Of a stretch of 64,000 bases of DNA, positions 739 to 54,648 are shown piece after piece. Position numbers and translations under genes: made by a program. This stretch comes from Escherichia phage vB_EcoM_F1. The stretch is from sequence record NC_054912.1; one strand, 5' to 3'. A model generated the notes under the pieces. The model saw only the letters and a list, made by a program, of their open reading frames with translations, had not been told where the DNA came from and ran no database searches. Each line of letters starts with the position of its first letter. Position 1 is the stretch's first letter.

Positions 739-2304
739 ATGACTATCAAAACTAAAGCTGAACTTTTGAACAAATGGAAGCCATTACTGGAAGGTGAAGG
801 TTTACCGGAAATTGCTAATAGCAAACAAGCGATTATCGCTAAAATCTTTGAAAACCAGGAAAAAGATTTCCAGACAGCTCCGGAATATAAAGACGAAAAA
901 ATTGCTCAGGCATTCGGTTCTTTCTTAACAGAAGCTGAAATCGGTGGTGACCACGGCTACAATGCTACCAACATCGCTGCAGGTCAGACTTCTGGCGCAG
1001 TAACTCAGATTGGCCCGGCTGTTATGGGTATGGTACGTCGTGCTATTCCTAACCTGATTGCTTTCGATATTTGTGGTGTTCAGCCGATGAACAGCCCGAC
1101 TGGCCAGGTATTCGCAATGCGCGCAGTATATGGTAAAGACCCGGTCGCTTCTGGTGCTAAAGAAGCATTCCACCCAATGTATGGTCCAGATGCAATGTTC
1201 TCTGGTCAGGGTGCTGCTAAGAAATTCACAGCTCTGGCTGCTAGCACACAAACCACAGCAGGTGATATCTATACTCACTTCTTCCAGGACACTGGTACTG
1301 TGTATCTGCAAGCTTCTGCTCAAGTAACAATTAGTGCAAGCGCAACTGATGCAGCTAAATTAGATGCTGAAATTAAGAAACAAATGGAAGCTGGTGTACT
1401 GGTAGAAATCGCTGAAGGTATGGCTACTTCTATCGCTGAACTCCAGGAAAGTTTCAACGGTTCTACCGATAACCCATGGAATGAAATGGGCTTCCGTATC
1501 GATAAACAAGTTATCGAAGCTAAATCTCGTCAGTTGAAAGCTGCTTACTCTATTGAATTAGCACAAGACCTTCGCGCTGTTCACGGTATGGATGCTGATG
1601 CTGAACTGTCTGGTATTCTGGCTACCGAAATTATGCTGGAAATCAACCGCGAAGTTGTTGATTGGATTAACTACTCCGCTCAGGTTGGTAAATCTGGTAT
1701 GACCCTGACTCCGGGTTCTAAAGCTGGTGTATTTGACTTCCAGGACCCAATCGATATTCGTGGTGCTCGCTGGGCAGGTGAATCCTTTAAAGCTCTGTTG
1801 TTCCAGATTGACAAAGAAGCAGTTGAAATTGCTCGTCAGACTGGTCGCGGCGAAGGTAACTTCATTATCGCTTCCCGTAACGTAGTTAACGTTCTGGCTT
1901 CAGTTGATACCGGCATTTCTTATGCTGCACAAGGTCTGGCTACTGGCTTTAACACTGATACTACCAAGTCAGTATTTGCTGGTGTTCTGGGTGGTAAATA
2001 CCGTGTATATATCGACCAGTATGCTAAACAGGATTATTTCACCGTAGGTTATAAAGGTCCGAACGAAATGGATGCTGGTATTTACTATGCTCCATATGTA
2101 GCTCTGACTCCGCTGCGTGGTTCCGATCCGAAGAACTTCCAACCGGTAATGGGATTCAAAACTCGTTACGGTATCGGTATCAACCCATTTGCAGAATCCG
2201 CTGCTCAGGCTCCGGCTTCTCGCATCCAGAGCGGTATGCCTTCTATTCTGAATAGCCTTGGTAAAAACGCTTACTTCCGCCGTGTATATGTTAAAGGTAT
2301 CTAA
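739..2304 (+). CDS. 23: Major capsid protein gp23
   Basis: 521-aa ORF, MTIKTKAELLNKWKPLLEGEG..., recognised as T4 gp23; length matches. Confidence 0.97.
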   Translation: MTIKTKAELLNKWKPLLEGEGLPEIANSKQAIIAKIFENQEKDFQTAPEYKDEKIAQAFGSFLTEAEIGGDHGYNATNIAAGQTSGAVTQIGPAVMGMVRRAIPNLIAFDICGVQPMNSPTGQVFAMRAVYGKDPVASGAKEAFHPMYGPDAMFSGQGAAKKFTALAASTQTTAGDIYTHFFQDTGTVYLQASAQVTISASATDAAKLDAEIKKQMEAGVLVEIAEGMATSIAELQESFNGSTDNPWNEMGFRIDKQVIEAKSRQLKAAYSIELAQDLRAVHGMDADAELSGILATEIMLEINREVVDWINYSAQVGKSGMTLTPGSKAGVFDFQDPIDIRGARWAGESFKALLFQIDKEAVEIARQTGRGEGNFIIASRNVVNVLASVDTGISYAAQGLATGFNTDTTKSVFAGVLGGKYRVYIDQYAKQDYFTVGYKGPNEMDAGIYYAPYVALTPLRGSDPKNFQPVMGFKTRYGIGINPFAESAAQAPASRIQSGMPSILNSLGKNAYFRRVYVKGI

Positions 2305-2317
2305 TCTTTGACGATTT

Positions 2318-2337
2318 AAGGGACCTTCGGGTCCCTT
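2318..2337. terminator. Intrinsic terminator hairpin after gene 23
   Basis: aagggacc-ttcg-ggtccctt stem-loop with UUCG loop followed by T-run. Confidence 0.7.
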
Positions 2338-2352
2338 TAGTTGTTTTTATGG

Positions 2353-2360
2353 TATAAATA
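2353..2360 (+). promoter_or_regulatory. Late promoter TATAAATA upstream of gene 24
   Basis: Exact TATAAATA about 28 nt upstream of gene 24 ATG. Confidence 0.55.
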
Positions 2361-2387
2361 AATCATATAAACTGAAAGGAAAGCGCA

Positions 2388-3671
2388 ATGGCTAAAATCA
2401 ACGAACTTCTGCGCGAATCAACCACAACGAATAGCAACTCAATCGGTCGCCCAAATCTCGTTGCTTTGACTCGCGCTACCACTAAATTAATATATTCTGA
2501 CATTGTAGCAACGCAAAGAACTAATCAACCTGTTGCTGCTTTTTATGGTATCAAATACCTTAACCCAGACAACGAATTTACGTTTAAAACTGGTGCTACT
2601 TACGCTGGCGAAGCCGGATATGTAGACCGAGAACAAATCACAGAATTAACAGAAGAGTCTAAATTAACTCTCAATAAAGGCGATTTATTCAAATATAATA
2701 ATATCGTTTATAAAGTATTAGAAGATACACCATTTGCTGATATTGAAGAAAGTGATTTAGAATTAGCTCTTCAGATTGCAATTGTTCTTTTAAAGGTTCG
2801 TCTATTTTCTGATGCTGCAGTAACAAGCAAATTTGAAAGCTCTGATAGCGAAATTGCGGATGCTAGATTCCAGATTAATAAATGGCAAACCGCAGTTAAA
2901 TCTCGTAAACTTAAAACTGGCATTACAGTTGAATTAGCACAAGATTTAGAAGCAAATGGATTCGATGCTCCTAATTTCTTGGAAGATTTGCTTGCAACCG
3001 AAATGGCAGATGAAATCAATAAAGATATTCTGCAGTCTTTGATTACAGTGTCAAAACGTTATAAAGTTGCAGGAATTACTGATACTGGATTCATTGATTT
3101 GAGTTATGCATCTGCACCTGAAGCGGGTCGTTCATTATATCGAATGGTATGTGAAATGGTTTCACATATCCAAAAAGAATCAACTTATACAGCAACGTTC
3201 TGTGTTGCTTCAGCTCGTGCTGCTGCGATTCTTGCTGCATCAGGTTGGTTAAAACATAAACCAGAAGATGATAAATATCTTTCACAAAATGCCTACGGGT
3301 TCTTAGCTAATGGTTTACCGCTTTATTGCGATACTAACAGCCCATTAGATTATGTAATCGTTGGTGTAGTAGAAAATATCGGTGAAAAAGAAATTGTTGG
3401 ATCAATTTTCTATGCTCCGTATACAGAAGGTCTCGACTTAGATGACCCTGAACATGTAGGTGCATTTAAAGTTGTTGTTGACCCAGAAAGTTTGCAGCCA
3501 TCTATCGGTTTATTAGTTAGATATGCTTTATCAGCAAATCCTTACACCGTAGCAAAAGATGAAAAAGAAGCAAGAGTAATTGATGGTGGAGACATGGATA
3601 AAATGGCGGGTCGTTCAGATTTGTCTGTTTTATTAGGTGTTAAGCTACCAAAAATTATCATTGATGAATAA
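2388..3671 (+). CDS. 24: Capsid vertex protein gp24
   Basis: 427-aa ORF directly after gene 23, gp23-paralog position and size as in T4. Confidence 0.93.
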   Translation: MAKINELLRESTTTNSNSIGRPNLVALTRATTKLIYSDIVATQRTNQPVAAFYGIKYLNPDNEFTFKTGATYAGEAGYVDREQITELTEESKLTLNKGDLFKYNNIVYKVLEDTPFADIEESDLELALQIAIVLLKVRLFSDAAVTSKFESSDSEIADARFQINKWQTAVKSRKLKTGITVELAQDLEANGFDAPNFLEDLLATEMADEINKDILQSLITVSKRYKVAGITDTGFIDLSYASAPEAGRSLYRMVCEMVSHIQKESTYTATFCVASARAAAILAASGWLKHKPEDDKYLSQNAYGFLANGLPLYCDTNSPLDYVIVGVVENIGEKEIVGSIFYAPYTEGLDLDDPEHVGAFKVVVDPESLQPSIGLLVRYALSANPYTVAKDEKEARVIDGGDMDKMAGRSDLSVLLGVKLPKIIIDE

Positions 3672-3674
3672 AAC

Positions 3675-3698
3675 AAAGGGACCTTTCGGTCCCTTTTT
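3675..3698. terminator. Bidirectional terminator hairpin between gene 24 (+) and rnlB (-)
   Basis: aaagggacc-tttc-ggtcccttttt, A-run on one side and T-run on the other. Confidence 0.7.
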
Positions 3699-3700
3699 AT

Positions 3701-4705
3701 TTAACTTACCAATTCAATCCAAGCCGGACGAAGTACATCTTGTACCATTTTAACTAATTCCTTTTTAATCAAAGAAGGATTATCCGCTTGAGTTAGAGTA
3801 ATACCTTCACGAGAAGTTTCTTCCAAAATATCTTGAACAGTTAGTCCCATCACCTTTCCAAAATCTTTTGGACCAATTTCGCCAATTTTAGAAATAACGT
3901 TATTTACTCGGTTCAGTGTAACGTAACAAGCTAAAATTCCCACCAATTTGTTATCAGCTTCTGATAGTTCAACTTTAGCTTTAATAGGCTTATCAGACTT
4001 TTTCTTTTCACTAAATTTGGAATTCTTGCATTTAATCGCTACACGATTTCCATTATGAAGCCAAGAAGGATAACAAGGTTTCAATACATATCCTTCAGCG
4101 GTAAATACTTCGCCTTTTGCTTCGGCATTCCAAACGCATTTATTTGCATCAACTAATCCAGCATGGTCTACTGTAAAATTATAAGACGGAACAACAGAAT
4201 CCAAATCATTTGGAAGTTTAATAAGATCTTCAAATTTACCACGACCCAAAAGTGGAGCGATTTTAAACCCAAATGAATTACAAAACGATTCCATCATGTA
4301 ATCATCAACATAAGTTACATCACCACTTTCGGTAGTGACAATAATGTCAAATACATAAAAATCTTTATCGCCATAATCAACATTCTTCTGAATGCCAGGT
4401 CCAGCGAATTCGCCAAAAACTTGATAAGTCACAACAGCTGAAGTTTCCATAATTTCTTGGACAGCTTTAATAGAATCTTCGTAATTCTTTAAAATAATTT
4501 CATAACCGAAGAAATCTTCAGCAGGAAGAATTGGTCCAGTACGTTTAGCGCAAGTTACTTTATCACGCTCAATAATCAATGAGAAATTTGTGCCGTGAAT
4601 CTTTTCACGAGCTACCCATTCGCCGCCAGTCAATCCCAAGCTATAAAGTTTTTCAATAAATTTAGAGTTGTAATGATTTTCAAGACTGCTATACTTTTTA
4701 AACAT
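3701..4705 (-). CDS. rnlB: RNA ligase 2 (Rnl2)
   Basis: 334-aa ORF with nucleotidyltransferase motif I KIHGTN near N-terminus; T4 position between 24 and hoc. Confidence 0.9.
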
Positions 4706-4714
4706 AATTAATCC

Positions 4715-4993
4715 TCAAAATGTAATTTCTAACCAATCACCATCACGCTGATCACTATTAACTTTAAAGCTGAATCCTTCTTTTCTCAGCCAATCACCAA
4801 TTTCTTCAGTAATCAATTTATCGCGAGCAGTACAATAATAACTAAAATATGTTTTACCTTGTTCAGCTGCTTTATTAGCAAGTTCCGAAAAATCTTTAAT
4901 AAAACACTCTAGCTTAAACTGTTTACTTTTGAATGCTTTTTCGCGTAATTGATTAGCAAAAGATTCATTTTCATAAAGATCATACTGTTCCAT
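4715..4993 (-). CDS. Hypothetical protein (T4 24.2-like position)
   Basis: 92-aa ORF co-oriented between hoc and rnlB. Confidence 0.55.
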   Translation of the reverse strand: MEQYDLYENESFANQLREKAFKSKQFKLECFIKDFSELANKAAEQGKTYFSYYCTARDKLITEEIGDWLRKEGFSFKVNSDQRDGDWLEITF

Positions 4994-5284: not shown

Positions 5285-6415
5285 TTATGGATAGGTATAG
5301 ATGATACCAGTTTCTAAAGCAGTTTTATGAATGATGTATCCATTACGCGATTCTTGGACATCAACTTCTGGATAGTCTTTCATCATCTTCTGAAGAGTGT
5401 AACGATGCAGGTAGTATTTACTATCTGGATCGTCAGTTTTCCAATCTTTACCTTCTTCGGTCATTTTTTGGATTTCATCCATAACCCACCAACCGCACCA
5501 GATGTAAGCTGAAGTGCGATGTGGAAGAGGATGAACATAAGGCAATTCACCTTCTGGTTCTGGAGCAACTTTATCAGTTACCTGAACTTGACCTTCTGCT
5601 GTAATAGTTTTGCTATCATAATCAGTTGCTGTAACGACAGCAGTAACTTCAATAGTTTGACTTCCAACAGATGAGGTATCGACAGTATACACATTAGTCG
5701 ATCCTTCTACAGGAGAAGAATCTTTCTTCCATGAATAAGTAATTTGCGCTGCTTCAGGTGCGCCAGTGACATTAGCGGTAAATGTAGCCGAAGCATCTTG
5801 CTGAACGTTAATAGAAGGAGGAGTCAATGTAACCTGTGGATTCATTGTCTTCTTATTAACTGTTAATGATACTTCATTAGAAGTAACGCTCAGTGCATCG
5901 TAATCTGTCGCGGTTACTTGGGCTACGCATTTAATTTTTTTAACTCCACTTGTAGTTGGAGTGTAATTGAATGTAGCGGAAGTTGCTTCGTCCACAGGAG
6001 AACCGTCAACGTACCACTGATATGTGGCGTTTGCGCCCGATGGCTGCGAAGCTAAAGCGGCAGTAAATTCAATAGCTGTTCCAATCACTCCAGCCGCAGG
6101 ACTAGCAGGAGTTACGGCTAAGGTAGTCGTCTGTGTCTTATTTTTAACTGTGATAGTTGTTGTCGCTTCAGCCGTTTCCGGGCCTCCTTCAGAAAGTGTA
6201 TTTGTTGCAACTACTTTAATAGTCTTTTGACCGGCAGGTCCTTTTAATACATAACTAAAAGTTGCTTCAGCTCCATCTTGTGGAACATCATCTACAGTCC
6301 AAACATATGTAATAGGTCCATCTCCAGTTTGACCACTGGGTGTAGCAGTAAACTGCTGAGTCTGATCTATAACTCCAGTAGGTGTTTTAGGAGTTATATC
6401 AACTGTAAAAGCCAT
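5285..6415 (-). CDS. hoc: Highly immunogenic outer capsid protein Hoc (Ig-like domain repeats)
   Basis: 376-aa ORF with repeated Thr/Val-rich beta-type segments and recurring VTATDYD motif; T4 position and length. Confidence 0.88.
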   Translation of the reverse strand: MAFTVDITPKTPTGVIDQTQQFTATPSGQTGDGPITYVWTVDDVPQDGAEATFSYVLKGPAGQKTIKVVATNTLSEGGPETAEATTTITVKNKTQTTTLAVTPASPAAGVIGTAIEFTAALASQPSGANATYQWYVDGSPVDEATSATFNYTPTTSGVKKIKCVAQVTATDYDALSVTSNEVSLTVNKKTMNPQVTLTPPSINVQQDASATFTANVTGAPEAAQITYSWKKDSSPVEGSTNVYTVDTSSVGSQTIEVTAVVTATDYDSKTITAEGQVQVTDKVAPEPEGELPYVHPLPHRTSAYIWCGWWVMDEIQKMTEEGKDWKTDDPDSKYYLHRYTLQKMMKDYPEVDVQESRNGYIIHKTALETGIIYTYP

Positions 6416-32872: not shown

Positions 32873-33375
32873 TTAAAAGTATTTTTTAAAACTCATCATA
32901 ACTTTATCATCAACATCATTATCAATCTGTGCAACAAGGTAAGATGACAGTTCTACTTCTTGTGGCGCGGATTGAACATTATCAGAATTAAGATATTCAC
33001 GAATCCAAGGATATGGATGTTTAACCGGAGCATCGGTAATTGGACATGGAAGACCACACTGTTTCATACGAGATACAGTTAAGTAATCAATAAAGCTCCA
33101 CATGCTATTTGTATTTAATCCAGGAACATCGCCATCTTTAAATAAATGAACTGCCCAATCTTTTTCTTGGCGGTTAACTTCCATGAAAATATCAACTGCT
33201 TCTTGTTCACACTCTTGAGCAATTTTAACCCATTCATCGCCATCAGTGCCAAGTTGAAGTTGACGAATAATATATTGGGTGCCTTTAAGATGAAGCTGCT
33301 CATCACGCGCAATGAACTTCATAATCTTGGCATTACCTTCCATGATTTCCATGTTCTTATGGAAGTTAAAGGTAC
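32873..33375 (-). CDS. nrdB: Ribonucleotide reductase small subunit NrdB, exon 2
   Basis: Translation ...TFNFHKNMEIMEGNAKIMKFIARDEQLHL continues the NrdB sequence; 5' boundary inferred from frame and splice-site rules. Confidence 0.8.
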
Positions 33376-34466
33376 CGTTATGTTCGATTGAGCTCGCTAA
33401 TTCTCAACCCGTTCTCTTATGAACTGCTGCATGTTACCATGCAGACCAGACTATATCACAATCCCGGAGGGATTCTCCCCATTTCGAGTCGCTTGACCCT
33501 ACGTCCGAAGACTAGTCGTTGAACCTTGCTTTGCAATTGTCGCCGTGCCATCGTTTATATGTTGATGGTGATAAATCTTTCTTATCACAATATGGACAAT
33601 TCAATTGAATTCTATTTGGATTTAATTTACATCTGTCATTATGTTTTAGATAAAATCCAGGACCTTTACCAATGTGACCACAGAAATCACATGTAATTTC
33701 TTTTTGTGCAGGATGGGTCCCGTTCTTAACCATTTCTAATGTTTTTGCTGATGTTCTTTTCTTATGGTCTTCTGATAAGAAATGATGTGAACCGTCATTT
33801 ACCCGTTTTGATTGAGTTTCTGACTGCATTTTACCACCGCAAAATACATGAGTACCTTCTTTTATAGCTGCAATATTGCGTTCTTTAACTTTTGCAATAT
33901 GCTCAGCTTGTTGAAAATTATGTATACCTAATGCAACTCTATTTAAATTAGATTTACGCTGTATTTCACCGTCTAAAAGATGAAATGTACCATTTTCTAT
34001 CTTAGATTTAATAGAGGCAATATTTTTAGCTCGTACTTCAGGGATATTAAAAATCTGGATTTCTCTAGATTTTGCGGCTTTAGAAGCTAATTCAGAAATT
34101 TCTTCAGGAGAATATTTCATTCTAAGCTTTATAGCATGACAAGCCTGGTAATCTTTTTGAGCTAAATGTATATCATAATGTTCCTGTATAGAAAGGCACA
34201 TCAAATTATCTAAATCATTATTTTCACGGTTACCGTCTTTATGATGGATTTCGTATGTTCTTCCATCAGAATCTTTAGGTATAGGTCCGTTAGCATCTAT
34301 CCAAATTTTTCTATAGTTCAATTGTGCATCCTCTTAAAAGTATAATCATATTTATATTATACTAATTAAAGGTGCAAGCAAAACCTTGGCTGCTAGTTTT
34401 CCTATAAAGGACTTTCCAGCAATTAAAGGAGTTTTCGATAAACGTTACCGTTTAAAGGCGCATTTT
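33376..34466 (-). mobile_element. Group I intron in nrdB carrying a homing endonuclease ORF (about 1091 nt; boundaries inferred)
   Basis: nrdB reading frame broken between YVSFA and TFNFHKN; exon 1 ends in U and intron ends in G; internal HNH endonuclease ORF. Confidence 0.75.
33512..34321 (-). CDS. HNH homing endonuclease, I-TevIII-like, full length
   Basis: 269-aa ORF inside the nrdB intron; HNH-type motif (EIHHKDGNRENNDLDNL) and C-terminal Cys clusters (CDFCGH, CPYCDK). Confidence 0.85.
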   Translation of the reverse strand: MNYRKIWIDANGPIPKDSDGRTYEIHHKDGNRENNDLDNLMCLSIQEHYDIHLAQKDYQACHAIKLRMKYSPEEISELASKAAKSREIQIFNIPEVRAKNIASIKSKIENGTFHLLDGEIQRKSNLNRVALGIHNFQQAEHIAKVKERNIAAIKEGTHVFCGGKMQSETQSKRVNDGSHHFLSEDHKKRTSAKTLEMVKNGTHPAQKEITCDFCGHIGKGPGFYLKHNDRCKLNPNRIQLNCPYCDKKDLSPSTYKRWHGDNCKARFND

Positions 34467-35142
34467 ACGCAAAAGATACATAAAAACGAATAGCTTCCAA
34501 TGCGTTGATTACATGCAAACAGAGGTAAAGAGATTTCATTAGCTCACGCTTCCAATATGTCTCATGCTCAATAGCATCTTCAATAACGTCTTCGTCTGCA
34601 TTAATTTCTTTTTGGTATTCGATATCAGCTTTAGCATTTTCCCATTCACGGGTTTTAATCAGAACGTCATCATAATAGCGTCCAATGGATTCAGCACGTT
34701 TCATAATAGCTTCATCTAATACAATCTCATCAAATACCTTTGACGGATCAGTATAAAGATTTCGCATGATATGAGTATATGAACGACTGTGAATAGTTTC
34801 ACTAAAAGTCCATGTAGCAACCCATGTATCAAGACTTGGGTCTGAAATTAATGACATAAGTACAGCAGAAGGTGCACGACCCTGAATGCTATCCAAAAGT
34901 GATTGATACTTCAGGTTGTTAGTAAAAATATTTTGCTGATACTGAGGAAGCTTATTAAATTGCGCAGCATCCATCATTAAGTTTACTTCTTCAGGACGCC
35001 AGAAAAATGATAAAGATTTCTCAGTAAGTTCTTCAAATACTCGATGCCGTTGAATATCATAACGCGCAATACCAAGACCTGAACCAAAAAACATAGGTTC
35101 TTTTAAAACATCAACTGGGTTTGTATTAAAAACTGTGCTCAT
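34467..35142 (-). CDS. nrdB: Ribonucleotide reductase small subunit NrdB, exon 1
   Basis: 225 codons ending ...EAIRFYVSFA; matches the class Ia R2 iron-centre region. Confidence 0.85.
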
Positions 35143-37775: not shown

Positions 37776-37992
37776 ATTGTTCTTCCGTTAAAACAGTAAT
37801 ATCGTAGTAACAGTCAGAAGAAGTTTTAACTGTAGAAATTTTATTATCAAAATACTCACGAGTCATTTTATGAGTATAATATTTTTTGCCATAAATGATA
37901 ATAGGCTGATTTGGTCCTGGAACTTCTAACTCGCTTGGGTTAGGAAGTGTAAAAAGAACGGCACCAGAAGTATCTTTAAATCGTAAAATCAT
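37729..37992 (-). CDS. Hypothetical protein nrdA.2
   Basis: 87-aa ORF. Confidence 0.5.
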
Positions 37993-38300
37993 ATTGCCAT
38001 TTTCCCTTTAATTGCTGGATGCGATTCATAATTTTCAAGGATAAAATCTTTCGGTTTCATGTATTCAGTTAACCAGTAAAGCTGCGTTTCGGTGTCACAA
38101 TTTCCAAACTCTATAGGCCAATCAATTTTAAGTTCACACAGTTCTTTAGGCTCACGACGTAAAATTTCTTTACATTGCTCAGTATGATTCATATAGATGT
38201 GAGTATTACCACCGGAAAATATCAAATCTCCTGGGATAAGATTACACATCTTAGCCACAATATGCGTCAAGGCAGCGTACGAGGCAATGTTGAATGGTAG
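37989..38300 (-). CDS. td: Thymidylate synthase, exon 2
   Basis: Begins [11 protein letters not shown]...; the intron's last three bases AUG give the apparent M of the track ORF. Confidence 0.88.
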
Positions 38301-38746
38301 CATTATGTTCAGATAAGGTCGTTAATCTTACCCCGGAATTATATCCAGCTGCATGTCACCATGCAGATCAGACTATATCTCCAACTTGTTAAAGCAAGTT
38401 GTCTATCGTTTCGAGTCACTTGACCCTACTCCCCAAAGGGATAGTCGTTAGGCATTTATGTAGAACCAATTCCATTTATCAGATTTTACACGATAAGTAA
38501 CTAATCCAGACGAAATTTTAAAATGCCTCTTCCATCTCTTTTCAAAATCTTTAGCACTTCCTACATATACTTTATTGTTTAAAGTATTTTTAATCTGATA
38601 AATTCCGCTTTTCATAAATACCTCTTTAAATATAGAAGTATTTATGAAAGGGCAGTCCTACAATTTAGCACGGGATTGTCTACTAGAGAGGTTCCCCGTT
38701 TAGATAGATTACAAGTATAAGTCACCTTATACTCAGGCCTCAATTA
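38301..38746 (-). mobile_element. td group I intron, 446 nt, with internally deleted homing endonuclease ORF
   Basis: 5' end reads UAAUUGAGGCCUGAGUAUAAGGUGACUUAUACUUGUAAUCUAUCUAAACGGGGAACC..., recalled as the T4 td intron; exon 1 ends UUGGGU. Confidence 0.85.
38448..38615 (-). pseudogene. I-TevI remnant: 55-codon in-frame fusion of the GIY-YIG N-terminus and C-terminal tail
   Basis: Hand translation MKSGIYQIKNTLNNKVYVGSAKDFEKRWKRHFKISSGLVTYRVKSDKWNWFYINA; start matches the I-TevI N-terminus. Confidence 0.7.
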
Positions 38747-40118
<1,372 letters not shown>

Positions 40119-44771: not shown

Positions 44772-47700
44772 ATGGCCGAGATTAAAAGAAAGTTCAGAGC
44801 AGAAGATGGTCTGGACGCAGGTGGTGATAAAATAATCAACGTAGCTTTAGCTGATCGTACCGTAGGAACTGACGGTGTTAACGTTGATTACTTAATTCAA
44901 GAAAACACAGTTCAACAATATGATCCAACTCGTGGATATTTAAAAGATTTTGTAATCATTTATGATAACCGCTTTTGGGCTGCTATAAATGATATTCCAA
45001 AACCAGCAGGAGCTTTTAATAGCGTACGATGGAGAGCGTTACGTACCGATGCAAACTGGACAACTGTTTCATCAGGACCTTATCAATTAAAGTCAGGTGA
45101 ATTAATTTCAGTTAATACTGCAGCAGGAAATGACATTACATTTACTTTACCATCTTCTCCAATTGACGGTGATACTATCGTTCTCCAAGACATTGGAGGA
45201 AAACCTGGAGTTAACCAAGTTTTAATTACAGCTCCGGTACAAAGCATTGTAAATTTTAGAGGTCAGCAAGTACGTTCAGTACTAATGACTCATCCAAAAT
45301 CACAGATAGTTTTAATTTTTAGTAATCGTCTGTGGCAAATGTATGTCGCTGATTATAGTAGAGAAGCTGTAGTTGTAACGCCTGCGAGTCTCTATCAGGC
45401 GCAATCAAACGATTTTATCGTACGTAGATTTACTTCTGCTGCACCAATTAATGTTAAACTTCCAAGATTTGCTAATCATGGAGATATTATTAATTTCGTC
45501 GATTTAGATAAACTAAATCCGCTTTATCATACAATTGTTACTACATACGATGAAACGACTTCAATACAAGAAGTTGGAACTCATTCCATTGAAGGCCGTA
45601 CAACAATTGACGGTTTCTTGATGTTTGATGATAATGAGAAATTGTGGAGATTGTTTGACGGGGATAGTAAAGCACGTTTACGTATTATAACGACTAATTC
45701 TAATATTCGTCCAAATGAAGAAGTTATGGTATTTGGTGCGAATAATGGAACAGCTCAGACAATTGAACTTCAGCTTCCGACTGATATTTCTGTTGGTGAT
45801 ACTGTTAAAATTTCCATGAATTACATGAGAAAAGGACAAACGGTTAAAATCAAAGCTGCTGGTGAAGATAAAATTGCTTCTTCAGTTCAATTGCTGCAAT
45901 TCCCAAAACGTTCAGAGTATCCGCCTGAAACTAAATGGGTAACAGTTCAAGAATTAGTTTTTAACGGTGAAACTAATTATGTTCCAGTTTTAGAGCTTGC
46001 TTATATAGAAGATTCTGATGGAAAATATTGGGTTGTACAGCAAAACGTTCCAACTGTAGAAAGAGTAGATTCTTTAAATGATTCTACTAGAGCAAGATTA
46101 GGCGTAATTGCTTTAGCTACACAAGCTCAAGCTAATGCTGATTTAGAAAATTCTCCACAAAAAGAATTGGCAATTACTCCAGAAACGTTAGCTAATCGTA
46201 CTGCTACTGAAACTCGCAGAGGTATCGCAAGAATAGCAACAACTGCTCAAGTTAACCAGGATACTACATTCTCTTTTGCTGATGATATTATCATCACTCC
46301 TAAAAAGCTGAATGAAAGAACAGCTACTGAAACTCGCAGAGGTGTTGCTGAAATTGCTACGCAGCAAGAAACTAATGCAGGAACCGATGATACTACAATC
46401 ATCACTCCTAAAAAGCTTCAAGCTCGTCAAGGTTCTGAATCATTATCTGGTATTGTAACCTTTGTATCTACTGCAGGTGCTACTCCAGCTTCTAGCCGTG
46501 AATTAAATGGTACGAATGTTTATAATAAAAACACTGATAATTTAGTTGTTTCACCTAAAGCTTTGGATCAGTATAAAGCTACTCCAACACAACAAGGTGC
46601 GGTAATTTTAGCAGTTGAAAGTGAAGTAATTGCTGGACAAAGTCAGCAAGGATGGGCAAATGCTGTTGTAACGCCAGAAACGTTACATAAAAAGACATCA
46701 ACTGATGGAAGAATTGGTTTAATTGAAATTGCTACGCAAAGCGAAGTTAATACAGGAACTGATTATACTCGTGCAGTCACTCCTAAAACTTTAAATGACC
46801 GTAGAGCAACTGAAAGTTTAAGTGGTATAGCTGAAATTGCGACACAAGTTGAATTCGACGCAGGCGTCGACGATACTCGTATCTCTACACCATTAAAAAT
46901 TAAAACCAGATTTAATAGTACTGATCGTACTTCTGTTGTTGCTCTATCTGGATTAGTTGAATCAGGAACTCTCTGGGACCATTATACCCTTAATATTCTT
47001 GAAGCAAATGAGACACAGCGTGGTACACTTCGTGTAGCTACACAGGTCGAAGCTGCTGCGGGAACATTGGATAATGTTCTAATAACTCCTAAAAAGCTTT
47101 TAGGTACTAAATCTACTGAAGCGCAAGAAGGTGTTATTAAAGTTGCAACTCAGTCTGAAACTGTGACTGGAACGTCAACAAATACTGCTGTATCTCCAAA
47201 AAATTTAAAATGGATTGTGCAGAGTGAACCTACTTGGGCAGCAACTACTCTGATAAGAGGTTTTGTTAAAACTTCATCTGGTTCAATTACATTCGTTGGT
47301 AATGATACGGTAGGTTCAACACAGCCATTAGAATCATATGAGAAAAATAGCTATGCAGTATCACCATATGAATTAAACCGTGTATTAGCAAATTATCTGC
47401 CGTTAAAAGCAAAAGCTGTAGATAGTAATTTATTGGATGGTCTAGATTCATCTCAGTTCATTCGTAGGGATATTGCGCAGACGGTTAATGGTTCACTAAC
47501 CTTAACCCAACAAACGAATCTGAGTGCCCCTCTTGTATCATCTAGTACTGCTACGTTTGGTGGATCAGTTACAGCAAATAGTGTACTAACTATTTCTAAT
47601 ACTGGAACAGAAACTCATCTGATTTTTGAGAAAGGACCTCAAATTGGAACTAACCAAGCGCAGACGGTAACTATTAGAGTGTGGGGTAATCAATTTAGTG

Positions 47701-48641
47701 GGGAATCAGATACAACACGTTCTACTGTATTTGAAGTTGGTGATGAAACGTCTAATCACTTTTATTCTCAGCGCAATAAAGCTGGAAATATAACATTTAA
47801 TATCAATGGTACAGTAACACCTATAAATGTTAATGCTTCAGGAACATTGAATGCAAATGGTGTAGCAACATTTGGTAATTCAGTCACTGCAACTGGTGAA
47901 ATTATTTCTCGAAGCGCAAATGCTTTCCGTGCTATTAACGGTGATTACGGATTCTTTATTCGCAATGATGCCTCTAATACCTATTTTATGCTTACTGCAT
48001 CGGGTGATCAGACTGGTGGATTTAATGGATTGCGTCCTTTAGCTATCAATAATGCATCTGGCCAAGTAACGATTGGTGAAAGCTTAATCATTGCCAAAGG
48101 TGCTACTATAAATTCAGGCGGTTTGACTGTTAACTCGAGAATTCGTTCTCAGGGTACTAAAACATCTGATTTATACACCCGTGCACCAACATCTGAAACT
48201 GTAGGATTCTGGTCAATTGATATTAACGATTCAGCCACTTATAACCAGTTCCCGGGTTATTTTAAAATGGTTGAAAAAACTAATGAAGTGACTGGACTTC
48301 CATACTTAGAACGTGGTGAAGAGGTTAAATCTCCTGGTACATTGACTCAGTTTGGTAATACACTTGATTCGCTTTACCAAGATTGGATTACTTATCCAAC
48401 GACCCCAGAAGCGCGCACCACTCGCTGGACACGTACATGGCAGAAAACCAAAAATTCTTGGTCAAGTTTTGTTCAGGTATTTGATGGGGGTAACCCTCCT
48501 CAACCATCTGATATCGGTGCTTTACCATCTGATAATGCTATAATGGGTAATCTTACTATTCGTGATTTCTTACGAATTGGTAATGTTCGCATTATTCCTG
48601 ACCCAGTGAATAAAACGGTTAAATTTGAATGGGTTGAATAA
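44772..48641 (+). CDS. 34: Long tail fibre proximal subunit gp34
   Basis: 1289-aa ORF with internal tandem repeats (TETRRG.A.IAT...ITPKKL). Confidence 0.95.
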   Translation: MAEIKRKFRAEDGLDAGGDKIINVALADRTVGTDGVNVDYLIQENTVQQYDPTRGYLKDFVIIYDNRFWAAINDIPKPAGAFNSVRWRALRTDANWTTVSSGPYQLKSGELISVNTAAGNDITFTLPSSPIDGDTIVLQDIGGKPGVNQVLITAPVQSIVNFRGQQVRSVLMTHPKSQIVLIFSNRLWQMYVADYSREAVVVTPASLYQAQSNDFIVRRFTSAAPINVKLPRFANHGDIINFVDLDKLNPLYHTIVTTYDETTSIQEVGTHSIEGRTTIDGFLMFDDNEKLWRLFDGDSKARLRIITTNSNIRPNEEVMVFGANNGTAQTIELQLPTDISVGDTVKISMNYMRKGQTVKIKAAGEDKIASSVQLLQFPKRSEYPPETKWVTVQELVFNGETNYVPVLELAYIEDSDGKYWVVQQNVPTVERVDSLNDSTRARLGVIALATQAQANADLENSPQKELAITPETLANRTATETRRGIARIATTAQVNQDTTFSFADDIIITPKKLNERTATETRRGVAEIATQQETNAGTDDTTIITPKKLQARQGSESLSGIVTFVSTAGATPASSRELNGTNVYNKNTDNLVVSPKALDQYKATPTQQGAVILAVESEVIAGQSQQGWANAVVTPETLHKKTSTDGRIGLIEIATQSEVNTGTDYTRAVTPKTLNDRRATESLSGIAEIATQVEFDAGVDDTRISTPLKIKTRFNSTDRTSVVALSGLVESGTLWDHYTLNILEANETQRGTLRVATQVEAAAGTLDNVLITPKKLLGTKSTEAQEGVIKVATQSETVTGTSTNTAVSPKNLKWIVQSEPTWAATTLIRGFVKTSSGSITFVGNDTVGSTQPLESYEKNSYAVSPYELNRVLANYLPLKAKAVDSNLLDGLDSSQFIRRDIAQTVNGSLTLTQQTNLSAPLVSSSTATFGGSVTANSVLTISNTGTETHLIFEKGPQIGTNQAQTVTIRVWGNQFSGESDTTRSTVFEVGDETSNHFYSQRNKAGNITFNINGTVTPINVNASGTLNANGVATFGNSVTATGEIISRSANAFRAINGDYGFFIRNDASNTYFMLTASGDQTGGFNGLRPLAINNASGQVTIGESLIIAKGATINSGGLTVNSRIRSQGTKTSDLYTRAPTSETVGFWSIDINDSATYNQFPGYFKMVEKTNEVTGLPYLERGEEVKSPGTLTQFGNTLDSLYQDWITYPTTPEARTTRWTRTWQKTKNSWSSFVQVFDGGNPPQPSDIGALPSDNAIMGNLTIRDFLRIGNVRIIPDPVNKTVKFEWVE

Positions 48642-50492: not shown

Positions 50493-53400
50493 ATGGCTAC
50501 TTTAAAACAAATACAATTTAAAAGAAGCAAAACCGCAGGAGCACGTCCTGCCGCTTCAGTATTAGCCGAAGGTGAATTGGCTATAAACTTAAAAGATCGC
50601 GTACTTTTTACTAAAGATGACCAAGGAAATATTATTGATCTGGGTTTTGCTAAAGGCGGTAGCATTGACGGGAATGTTATTCATACAGGAAACTATAATC
50701 AAACTGGTGATTATACTTTAAATGGCACCTTCACTCAGACAGGTAATTTTAATTTAACTGGTATTGCTCGAGTAACTCGCGATATTATTGCCGCCGGGCA
50801 AATTATGACCGAGGGCGGAGAACTTATTACAAAAAGTTCAGGTACAGCACATGTTCGTTTTTTCGATAACAATAGTCGCGAACGCGGAATCATTTATGCC
50901 CCGGCTAATGATGGTTTAACTACACAAGTACTTAATATCAGGGTTCAAGACTACGCCGCTGGTAGCGAAAGCACTTATGCATTTTCAGGCAGTGGACTAT
51001 TTACTTCACCTGAAGTATCAGCATGGAAATCTATTTCGTCTCCACAAATTCTGACCAACAAAGTCATTACTAATAATAAATCTACGGGTGATTATGACAT
51101 CTATTCGATGGCAGACAATGTTCCATTGTCTGAAAGCACTACTGCTATTAATCATCTTCGTGTCATGCGTAATGCCGTTGGTTCTGGTATTTTCCATGAA
51201 GTTAAAGATAATGATGGAATAACTTGGTATGCAGGTGATGGACTTGACACCTATCTTTGGTCATTTACTTGGAGCGGCGGAATTAAATCAAGTCACTCAA
51301 TTTCTATTGGTTTAACACCTGGTAATAAAGATTATTCAATATTAGGACCATCTAGTATTGCTTTAGGAGATAATGATACTGGATTTAAATGGCATCAAGA
51401 TGGATATTATTTCAGCGTTAATAATGGAACAAAAACGTTTTTATTTAGTCCTAGCGAAACAACTAGCCTAAGAAAATTTGTAGCTGGATATTCTACTAAC
51501 GGAACCGATTTAACTACTCCTCCAACTGAAAATTATGCTCTTGCTACTGTAGTGACATACCACGATAATAACGCGTTTGGAGATGGTCAGACTCTTTTAG
51601 GATATTATCAAGGCGGTAATTATCATCATTATTTTCGCGGTAAGGGTACTACAAACATTAATACTCATGGCGGTTTGTTAGTTACTCCAGGTAATATTGA
51701 CGTTATTGGTGGTTCTGTTAATATTGATGGTCGTAATAATTCTTCTACGCTGATGTTTAGAGGTAACACAACTGGTAGTAGTTCAGTTGATAACATGACA
51801 ATTTCTGTGTGGGGTAATACATTTATTAATCCTAGCGAAGGTAATCGCAAAAATGTCATGGAAATTTCTGACGCAACTAGTTGGATGAGCTATATTCAAC
51901 GAACAACTGCAGGTAAAGTCGAATCGGTTATAAATGGCACCCAGATTGTTAATGAAAACTTGACAGTAGTAAAAAATGCTACATTTGACGGTACAATCAG
52001 CGCAGCCGGTGAAATCGCGACAAATGCTGTAAATGGTCTTCGCATTTGGAATGCAGATTATGGAGCCATTTTTAGACGTTCAGAAGGCAGTCTTCATATT
52101 ATTCCAACTGCTTACGGTGAAGGTAAATATGGCGATATCGGTCCACTTCGCCCGTTTAGTATGGCTTTAGATACTGGTAAAGTTACTATTCCAGATTTAC
52201 AATCAAGTTACAATACGTTCGCAGCAAACGGCTATATTAAATTTACTGGTCACGGTGCGGGCGCTGGCGGTTATGCCATTCAATATGCTCAAGCGGCTCC
52301 TATTTTCCAGGAAATCGATGATGATGCTGTAAGCAAATATTATCCTATTGTTAAACAGAAGTTTTTAAACGGTAAATGCGTTTGGTCTTTAGGTACTGAA
52401 ATTAATTCGGGTACATTCGTTATTCATCATCTGAAAGAAGATGGTTCACAAGGACATACGTCTCGTTTTAATCAAGACGGTACCGTTAACTTCCCAGATA
52501 ACGTTTCTGTCGGCGGCGGTGAAGCTACTATTGCTCGCAATGGTAATATCTTCTCTGATATTTGGAAACCGTTTACTTCTGCAGGTGATACTACAAATAT
52601 TCGCGATGCTATTGCGACTCGTGTTTCGAAAGAAGGCGACACGATAACAGGCAAATTGACTTTATCGGCAGGTAATGATGCCCTTGTTTTAACTGCAGGC
52701 ACGGGCGCTTCATCGCACATCCGTAGTGATGTAGGTGGTACAAATAATTGGTATATAGGCAAAGGCGGCGGCGACAATGGTCTAGGTTTTTACAGTTACA
52801 TTACACAAGGCGGTGTATACATAACAAATAACGGCGAAATAGCGCTTTCTCCTCAAGGACAAGGAACGTTTAATTTTAATAGAGATCGCCTTCATATAAA
52901 TGGTACACAATGGACTGCGCACCAGGCTGGCGATTGGGGAAGTCAATGGAAACAAGAAGCTCCCGTATTTGTGGATTTTGGCTACGTCGGTAATGATAGT
53001 TATTATCCAATTATCAAAGGAAAATCTGGTATTACTAACGAAGGATATTTTTCCAGCGTTGATTTTGGTATGCGACGCATTCCTAATAACTGGGCACAAG
53101 GTATTATTCGTGTAGGTAATCAGGAAAACGGTTCCAACCCACAAGCTATCTTCGAATTCCACCATAATGGAAACATGTACGTTCCTGACATGGTTAAAGC
53201 TGGAGCAAGAGTATCAGCTGGTGGAGGTGACCCTGTATGGACAGGCGCATGTGTTGTTATTGGTGATAATGATACCGGATTAGTTCATGGTGGTGATGGG
53301 CGAATTAACATGGTTGCAAATGGAATGCATATTGCTTCGTGGTCGTCCGCTTACCATCTCCATGAAGGTCTTTGGGATACCACTGGTGCTCTGTGGACTG

Positions 53401-53822
53401 AACACGGAAGAGCTATTATTTCTTTTGGTCATTTAGTCCAACAAAGCGATGCCTATTCCACATTTGTCCGCGATGTTTATGTCCGTTCTGATATTCGTGT
53501 TAAAAAAGACCTCGTTAAATTTGAAAATGCTTCTGAGAAGCTTTCCAAAATTAATGGTTACACTTATATGCAGAAGCGAGGCCTAGATGAAGAAGGCAAT
53601 CAGAAATGGGAACCTAACGCCGGTTTAATTGCTCAAGAAGTTCAAGCTATTTTGCCAGAATTAGTTGAAGGTGACCCGGATGGTGAAGCTTTACTTCGTT
53701 TGAACTATAACGGTGTAATTGGTTTAAATACAGCTGCAATCAATGAGCATACTGCAGAAATTGCGGAACTTAAATCAGAAATTGAAGAACTTAAAGCATT
53801 AGTTAAATCATTGTTAAAATAA
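50493..53822 (+). CDS. 37: Long tail fibre distal subunit gp37, with C-terminal intramolecular-chaperone-like domain
   Basis: 1109-aa ORF; N-terminus conserved with gp36/gp34 joints; C-terminal about 110 aa resembles self-cleaving chaperone domains. Confidence 0.92.
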
Positions 53823-53828
53823 TAAGAG

Positions 53829-53844
53829 GGGCTTCGGCCCCTTG
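53829..53844 (+). terminator. Hairpin between genes 37 and 38
   Basis: aggggc-ttcg-gcccct, immediately followed by GGAGG and the gene 38 ATG. Confidence 0.55.
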
Positions 53845-53853
53845 GAGGTTTAT

Positions 53854-54648
53854 ATGGCAGTAACAGGACCGTGGGTAGGATCGTCTGCAGTAGTTAATAC
53901 AGGACAAAATTGGATGGGTGGCGCGGCCCAACGATTAAGAATGGGTGCTCCATTTTGGATGAGTAATATGATAGGTCGATCTGTTGAAGTAATTCACACA
54001 CTTGGAGCGGACCATAACTTCAATGGTCAATGGTTCCGAGATAGATGTTTTGAGGCAGGTAGTGCACCTATAGTGTTTAATATCACTGGAAATTTGGTAT
54101 CATATTCTAGAGATGTTCCTTTATTCTTCATGTATGGAGATACACCGAATGAATATGTTCAGTTGAATATTAGTGGCGGCGCCCACATGTGGGGTAGAGG
54201 TGGACAAGGTGGATGGACTCATTCCGGCGGAGATGGTAATGGCCAACAAGGTGGCCATTGTATTCAAAATGACATTGGCGGACGATTAAGAATTAATAAC
54301 GGCGGAGTAATTTGTGGCGGTGGAGGCGGTGGTGGTGGTATCGCTTATCGTCCTCACTCTGGCGCAAAATGGCAAGATATTGGTGGTGGCGGAGGAAGAC
54401 CATTTGGGCCAGGAGGCGGTGGTGGTTATTCCGGCGGCGCAGCTTCTTATGATGGCCCAGGAGGTGGTTATAATTATGGTAATGCTCACTCTGGCCAGGG
54501 TGGTGATGCTGGCGCAAATGGACAAAATGCCTGGCATGATGGCGGTAAAGTTCTAAAAGTCGGGGCTGGCGGAGCTGCTGGTTATGCCGTCATAGGGTCT
54601 ACACCGACATGGCAAAACGTTGGAGCAATATATGGTCCAAGAGTATAA
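53854..54648 (+). CDS. 38: gp38 tail-fibre adhesin of T2/T6 type (glycine-rich motifs)
   Basis: ATG at 53854 after GGAGG (the track ORF from 53842 starts at TTG); poly-Gly blocks [25 protein letters not shown] separated by variable segments. Confidence 0.85.

Follow-up and report, generated by a model that had tools for sequence, protein, structure and literature searches.

The tip of the long tail fibre of phage S16 is the closest described counterpart of the locus analysed here. As summarized in the S16 passages of PMC7917993, the last ~113 residues of S16 gp37 are autocleaved after trimerization at the sequence DLNVS^SDRRIKK, and this autocleavage exposes the surface on which gp38 docks. 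The structure that explained this processing (PDB 6F45; Dunne et al., 2018, as cited in PMC7917993) is composed of three gp37 chains and one gp38 chain. Processing of gp37 in T2 has been known since 1986, and PMC3157838, citing Drexler et al. (1986), describes the gp37 proteins of T2 and T6 as cleaved at the C-terminus and then capped by gp38.

Similar self-cleaving domains are found in other phage receptor-binding proteins. In pb1 of phage T5, Ser1264 and Lys1269 have been assigned the catalytic role, and an S1264A substitution blocks cleavage (PMC4690869). A Ser/Lys(+5) pair of the K1F endosialidase is likewise assigned a catalytic role in the summary given by that source (PMC4690869), and a central triple coiled coil terminates both the T5 and the K1F chaperones (PMC4690869). 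Peptidase S74 has the intramolecular chaperone (IMC) of K1F as its founding member (Schwarzer, 2007; Schulz, 2010). Fibres similar to T4 gp37 have also been described from the Straboviridae in which, as in S16, the chain terminates with a self-cleaving S74-like domain, and in another class of fibre with an S74-like domain no cryo-EM density was present for that domain (PMC12143355).

Here, we analysed a stretch of 64,000 nucleotides from Escherichia phage vB_EcoM_F1 (NC_054912.1; hereafter the window), in which gene 37 (g37) ends in a predicted domain of this kind and is followed by a gene for an adhesin-type gp38.

Organization of the Fibre Locus

The fibre cluster lies on the + strand of the window and runs from g34 (44772-48641) through g35, g36, g37, and g38 to the holin gene t (Table 1). 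The gp37 precursor is 1109 aa long, with a calculated mass of 119.5 kDa, and contains the Pfam domains Gp34_trimer (a fibre domain) and Peptidase_S74, without a Collar domain. Codon 999 (Ser) opens at position 53487, in exact agreement with the start of the S74 domain, which occupies the extreme C-terminus of the protein from residue 999 to the stop codon (53820-53822, the first of two TAA codons). Cleavage ahead of Ser999 would divide the precursor into a mature gp37 with a calculated mass of 107.2 kDa and a released domain of 111 aa, or 12.3 kDa per chain. No overlapping open reading frame of at least 60 aa was found in the other frames of 53487-53822, and a search for hidden RNA gave no Rfam match at gathering level and no tRNAs.

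The g37-g38 segment matches that of Escherichia phage vB_EcoM_FN (MZ170041.1, Tequatrovirus; hereafter FN) at a reported identity of 100.0%. A base-by-base comparison of window positions 1-60648 with this record revealed three differences: an intergenic T-run near position 5934 (7 T in the window, 8 T in MZ170041.1) and single-nucleotide differences at 45103, within g34, and at 52774, which falls in g37 codon 761 and thus outside the IMC. The window phage is therefore a sister isolate of FN or a different version of it.

TABLE 1. Features of the g37-g38 region, with positions counted from the first letter of the window.
Feature	Position	Strand	Basis
Gene 37, distal long tail fibre subunit	50493..53822	+	Open reading frame, annotated CDS in MZ170041.1, Pfam
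Predicted mature gp37, residues 1-998	50493..53486	+	Conserved Ser999; S16 and T5 cleavage sites
Predicted end of mature fibre, D994-V-Y-V-R998	53472..53486	+	Alignment with S16, T2, and Dhakavirus
Ser999 codon, predicted nucleophile and first residue of released domain	53487..53489	+	Invariant in alignment
Lys1004 codon (Ser+5), predicted general base of Ser/Lys pair	53502..53504	+	Invariant in alignment
C-terminal intramolecular chaperone (IMC; Peptidase S74), residues 999-1109	53487..53819	+	PF13884, 6f45_A
Terminal heptad-repeat helix, residues 1075-1109	53715..53819	+	Heptad count, model helix
Intercistronic C(UUCG)G hairpin, GAGGGGC-UUCG-GCCCCUU	53826..53843	+	Sequence and fold
Gene 38, tail fibre adhesin, 264 aa	53854..54648	+	PF05268, PF21721, GenBank CDS

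A Predicted Intramolecular Chaperone at the gp37 C-Terminus

A first-pass annotation of this DNA, made from the letters, had proposed that the last ~110 residues of gp37 resemble self-cleaving C-terminal chaperone domains, and had named a profile search for Peptidase S74 as a way to check this. The search returns a significant match. Model positions 1-57 of 58 in PF13884 (Peptidase_S74, 'Chaperone of endosialidase') align with gp37 residues 999-1058, with scores of 48.5 bits (E 1.1e-12) with the whole of gp37 and 54.6 bits (E 1.3e-14) with the 111-aa tail alone, 32 bits above the curated gathering cut-off of 22 bits. Among known structures, the distal long tail fibre subunit of S16 (PDB 6f45_A) is matched by the last 190 residues of gp37 at E 2.5e-43 and by the last 116 residues at E 2e-33. 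The C-terminal peptide quoted in the annotation also agrees exactly with the translation.

The residues that would carry out cleavage are strictly conserved. The predicted scissile bond is Arg998|Ser999, in the context DVYVR998^S999DIRVKK, and DVYVR|SDIRVKK of the window aligns with DLNVS|SDRRIKK of S16. In an alignment of the window protein with T2 gp37 and eight database homologues, S999, D1000, and K1004 are invariant down to homologues of 28-40% identity. The protein homologue search returned only 12 short relatives, a number that is enough for this check of the Ser/Lys pair and too shallow for structure prediction. T2 (S1243), a Dhakavirus, a T5-like phage, and S16 all have the motif SDxxxK at the equivalent site, and T4 gp37 lacks it. 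Ser999 and Lys1004 line up with the Ser/Lys(+5) pair to which catalysis is assigned in T5 pb1 (Ser1264 and Lys1269) and in the K1F endosialidase. Just upstream, R993 and D994 (positions -6 and -5) are common to the window and S16, but not to T2. Used as a profile, the alignment additionally matches the ICA of MyRF (7dc3; 1.1e-11), a tail fibre (8jov; 2.1e-08), and the released neck appendage chaperone of GA-1 (3gud; 2.3e-04), and the 3gud_A chain begins at a serine (SDERHK) that aligns with Ser999. The neighbouring-subunit arginine proposed as a folding sensor in K1F and T5 was not located by sequence in gp37.

The tail was further described in the first-pass annotation as ending in a coiled-coil-like heptad segment, which we checked at the level of sequence and in a monomer model. 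In the best register, I, L, or V fills 8 of the 10 a/d positions over the last 35 residues, including the final six in succession (I, L, I, L, V, L), a count reached by 103 of 20,000 shuffled sequences. The AlphaFold2 monomer model, built for residues 970-1109 from a 13-sequence alignment, is poor (mean pLDDT 56, pTM 0.32), and its sole high-confidence part is one long helix spanning residues 1072-1108 (pLDDT 75-91). The heptad segment holds up, and in a chaperone trimer the terminal helix would be expected to build the central triple coiled coil. A Foldseek search of the PDB with the same model gave one match above noise, to the MyRF ICA (7dc3_C), and this match was fitting in kind but weak (E 0.012, TM 0.34). 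Because the model is poor and the fold match weak, we rested the identity of the domain on sequence, which classifies gp37 residues 999-1109 as a bona fide Peptidase S74, or intramolecular chaperone, domain.

The gp38 Adhesin and the g37/g38 Junction

The downstream gene had been taken to encode an adhesin-type gp38, and the database matches agree. The protein matches PF05268 (E 2.5e-68) and the N-terminal attachment domain Gp38_N (PF21721; E 1.6e-21), as well as the S16 adhesin 6f45_D over residues 1-261 (E 2.5e-52) and a GFP-gp38 fusion, 9v85_A (E 3.5e-73), and it includes a polyglycine-rich receptor-binding domain. Both gp37 and gp38 of the window are thus homologous to their counterparts in the S16 complex. 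Three tryptophans of the window protein, W7, W20, and W35, align with W9, W22, and W37 of T2 gp38, and the same pattern is present in a Dhakavirus. The equivalent tryptophans of S16 gp38 insert into pockets on the gp37 tip, according to the description of that complex in PMC7917993.

The start of g38 is ATG 53854, 32 nt past the last g37 codon. A mechanical list of open reading frames placed it at TTG 53842, inside the intercistronic hairpin, and we rejected this candidate in favour of the ATG, which agrees with the GenBank CDS. Counted from ATG 53854 the Gp38_N match spans positions 1-40 of 40, and the codon sits 5 nt past a GGAGG. The hairpin consists of a 7-bp stem closed by a UUCG tetraloop and lies between the TAATAA double stop (53820-53825) and this GGAGG Shine-Dalgarno sequence (53844-53848). 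The same C(UUCG)G hairpin is also found at the g37/g38 junction of T2 and T4 (L002 4303-4320 and L003 9626-9643), and T4 keeps it although its g38 is not homologous to the adhesin gene. A role as an intrinsic terminator of the fibre operon is unlikely, as no T-run follows the hairpin on the + strand; it may make the RNA more stable or shape the structure near the start of g38.

Comparison With Known Fibre Systems

The S16 fibre shares the g37-g38 gene order with the window, as well as a gp37 that ends in an IMC of ~112 aa (57% identical to that of the window), a cut motif, xxxxx|SDxRxKK, that aligns residue for residue, and a gp38 that is homologous over its full length (6f45_D). It differs in the five residues that precede the cut (DLNVS in S16, DVYVR in the window), in a divergent region upstream of the tip, and in its host and genus. 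The receptor may differ too: OmpA plus LPS is reported for FN (FN preprint), and OmpC is named for S16 in the title of a cited work.

T2 belongs to the same genus as the window phage. Its gp37 carries PF13884 at the C-terminus (residues 1243-1300 of 1341), its cut-site context, NVYIR|SDIRLK, is almost identical, and its gp38 is of the same adhesin type with the same three tryptophans. The T2 IMC is nevertheless shorter than that of the window (99 aa vs. 111 aa) and only 35% identical to it, and the gp38 N-termini are 49% identical, which corresponds to a different lock-and-key subtype. The five residues D994-R998 of the window align with DLNVS in S16, NVYIR in T2, and DVYIR in a Dhakavirus, and it is on this motif alignment that the transfer of the exact cut site rests across the IMC identities given above for S16 and T2.

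More distant relatives share the domain in other settings. The T5 chaperone, like that of the window, starts with SDIRxK, has the Ser/Lys(+5) pair, and ends in a coiled-coil helix, and a T5-like phage has an IMC that, at 43% identity, is closer to that of the window than the IMC of T2 is. The T5 protein, however, is part of a siphovirus fibre that binds the receptor directly with its tip, without a gp38-type adhesin, and its chaperone is 133 aa long with long hairpin 'tentacles'. The K1F endosialidase belongs to the same Pfam family and by the literature follows the same self-cleavage logic, dependent on correct folding of the trimer. Its chaperone is attached to a tailspike enzyme instead of a fibre, and the similarity is detectable only through the family profile, with no direct match to a K1F chain in our PDB searches. 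The MyRF ICA (PDB 7DC3), recovered by both the profile and the fold search, is a eukaryotic self-cleaving domain that depends on trimerization, and it lies in the middle of a membrane-bound transcription factor instead of at the end of a phage fibre. The 7DC3 residue that aligns with Ser999 is not a serine, presumably reflecting an inactivating construct.

T4 is built differently. Its gp37 has Collar and Phage_fiber domains, a different receptor-binding region, and no S74 domain, and its gp38, of 183 aa, matches no adhesin family; the T4 and T2 tip designs are non-homologous alternatives. The first-pass annotation had set the 1109 aa of the window gp37 beside 1026 aa for T4. The T4 length is right, but the difference says nothing by itself, because the two tip designs are non-homologous and T2 gp37, which has the domain, is 1341 aa long. 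We likewise rejected the idea that the extra 83 aa represent the IMC, as the C-termini are non-homologous and gp37 lengths range from 1026 to 1341 aa.

A Model for gp37 Maturation and Capping

We consider it about 90% probable that residues 999-1109 are an intramolecular chaperone, that the gp37 trimer cleaves itself between Arg998 and Ser999, and that gp38 caps the resulting tip. This is the sequence of autocleavage and capping that the first-pass annotation had predicted; homology favours it, autocleavage that exposes the gp38 dock is the published mechanism for S16, and for T2/T6 gp37 cleavage at the C-terminus followed by capping is known. That cleavage takes place in this phage, at exactly this bond and in the order described here, is inferred from these homologues. 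In this model, the terminal coiled coil would bring three gp37 chains into register and assist folding of the distal triple-stranded fibre. After correct folding of the trimer, Lys1004 would activate Ser999 for attack on the Arg998-Ser999 bond in each chain, and a chaperone trimer of 3 x 12.3 kDa would dissociate and be missing from the virion. At the tip so exposed, with its end ...DVYVR998, gp38 would then form the cap, probably as one copy if 6F45 is a guide. The residues D994-R998 are predicted to be the final beta-strand and to form the platform on which gp38 docks, a role assigned by analogy to the S16 tip (PMC7917993). Docking would involve the N-terminal domain of gp38 with its three conserved tryptophans, leaving the glycine-rich C-terminal domain to recognize the receptor. 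In the literature on phages with an IMC more than 95% identical to that of the window (PP01, wV7, and FN), we found no report of gp37 processing; the PP01 paper holds nothing on cleavage, and the FN preprint covers only receptors and gp38 divergence.

Several observations bear on whether gp37 is cut at all and, if so, by what. The S74-like domain could stay on the fibre uncleaved, serving as a trimerization foot, with gp38 bound elsewhere or alongside. Cleavage of gp37 in this phage is argued from homology, and the low confidence of the monomer model (pLDDT 56) together with the weak Foldseek match leaves this arrangement some room. It nevertheless strikes us as highly improbable, given that the Ser/Lys pair and the SDIRVKK motif are intact and invariant, that the S16 domain must leave to expose the gp38 dock, as the S16 passages of PMC7917993 have it, that the uncleaved form of the T5 protein is inactive in competition assays (PMC4690869), and that the S74-like domain of another fibre lacks cryo-EM density (PMC12143355). 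We attach just as small a likelihood to processing of gp37 by a separate host or phage protease, with the C-terminal segment only a folding aid. PMC3157838, in citing the work of 1986 on T2, speaks of 'proteolytic processing' and names no protease, which would accommodate such an enzyme. The domains of T5 pb1 and, by citation, of K1F, however, cleave themselves upon expression on their own in E. coli and lose this activity through a Ser-to-Ala substitution (PMC4690869); S16 gp37 is called autocleaved in the account cited above (PMC7917993), and the catalytic residues are conserved in the window gp37.

The remaining readings concern the kind of tip and the reality of the domain. As the phage is a Tequatrovirus, the genus of T4, and as some GenBank homologues of gp38 are still labelled 'distal long tail fiber assembly catalyst', a T4-type tip might be supposed, with receptor binding by gp37 itself and with gp38 serving solely in assembly, as a chaperone absent from the virion. 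This reading is already refuted by the matches of the window gp38 to PF05268, PF21721, and the S16 adhesin structure, neither family being matched by T4 gp38, and by the contrast in domains, T4 gp37 having Collar without S74 and the window gp37 the reverse; we give it next to no weight. Nor do we see any real prospect that a coiled-coil-like tail has been misread as a domain through chance or compositional resemblance. The general low complexity of heptad segments is all that speaks for such a misreading, and it is already refuted by the Pfam score, which comes from the non-helical N-terminal 60 residues and clears the cut-off by the margin given above, and by the spread of tblastn matches through the phage records described below. 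Self-cleavage followed by capping with gp38 is the reading that we retain.

Distribution and Mosaicism of the Domain

A tblastn search with the 111-residue IMC found relatives in 1469 of 50,697 phage records, 177 of them at least 95% identical. Identity is 95-99% to CE1, SfPhi01, and wV7, and 64% to a Dhakavirus. At the DNA level, a conserved island covers 53493-53942, from g37 nt 3001 to the start of g38. Here the IMC and the beginning of g38 are 92-99% identical to CE1, SfPhi01, and wV7, with the exception of wV7 in the last of the compared intervals (82%). The adjoining segment at 53343-53492 (g37 nt 2851-3000) is 68-72% identical to the same three phages. This sharp change in identity near the predicted scissile bond looks like a recombination boundary. 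The conserved-island pattern fits the published lock-and-key subtypes into which the C-terminus of gp37 and the N-terminus of gp38 fall (PMC3157838), and also fits the known mosaicism of g37 and g38.

It is tempting to speculate that the 3' end of g37 with its IMC, the UUCG hairpin, and the beginning of g38 form one conserved exchange cassette that moves between divergent fibres, and even between phage families. Such a cassette would fit the conserved DNA island beside a pre-cleavage segment of much lower identity, and would fit an IMC that is nearer to that of a T5-like siphovirus than to that of T2, a member of the same genus. By a further speculative step, the released chaperone trimer and gp38 would compete for the docking platform, which would couple gp38 loading to chaperone release. 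We hold this idea only tentatively and think it rather unlikely as a whole, and its modular part largely restates published ideas (PMC3157838; PMC12143355).

Other Observations on the Window and Related Records

Two genes on the - strand of the window are interrupted. The thymidylate synthase gene td is split by a short group I intron at 38349-38756, with exon 1 at 38744-39295 and the region of exon 2 at ~37989-38249. The corresponding Rfam match (Intron_gpI, 40.5 bits, E 7.7e-08) falls short of the gathering score of 50. A 55-aa open reading frame (38448-38615) is all that the intron holds, and its start appears to resemble a GIY-YIG homing endonuclease; T4 carries a full I-TevI gene at this place. 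The GenBank record annotates the td pieces as separate CDSs. The gene for the ribonucleotide reductase beta subunit, nrdB, is split by ~1.1 kb at 33343-34465, leaving halves at 34465-35142 and 32873-33343. Within this gap are a group I intron match below threshold (33427-33704; 38.1 bits, E 4.1e-07) and an intact open reading frame of 269 aa (33512-34321), a putative homing endonuclease by its look, which is annotated as 'hypothetical protein' in MZ170041.1.

A problem of annotation was also noticed in the Dhakavirus vB_EcoM_005 (NC_055783.1; L009 2101-4589), where two separate CDSs, 2101-4365 and 4392-4589, are recorded for g37. In this phage the match to the IMC, at 4501-4821, runs past the second CDS, which suggests that the 3' end of its g37 is frameshifted or mis-annotated.

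Implications for T2/S16-Type Fibres

The gp37 feature described here is already known: it is an ordinary element of T2/S16-type fibres and leaves the current understanding of them unchanged. Its value lies in better annotation, MZ170041.1 labelling gp37 and gp38 only 'tail fibers protein', and in guidance for fibre engineering and expression. For expression of the fibre, mature gp37 probably ends at Arg998, and the 12.3 kDa tail would be needed for folding and should be absent from the product. For engineering, it is gp38, and not gp37, that would be expected to carry receptor specificity.
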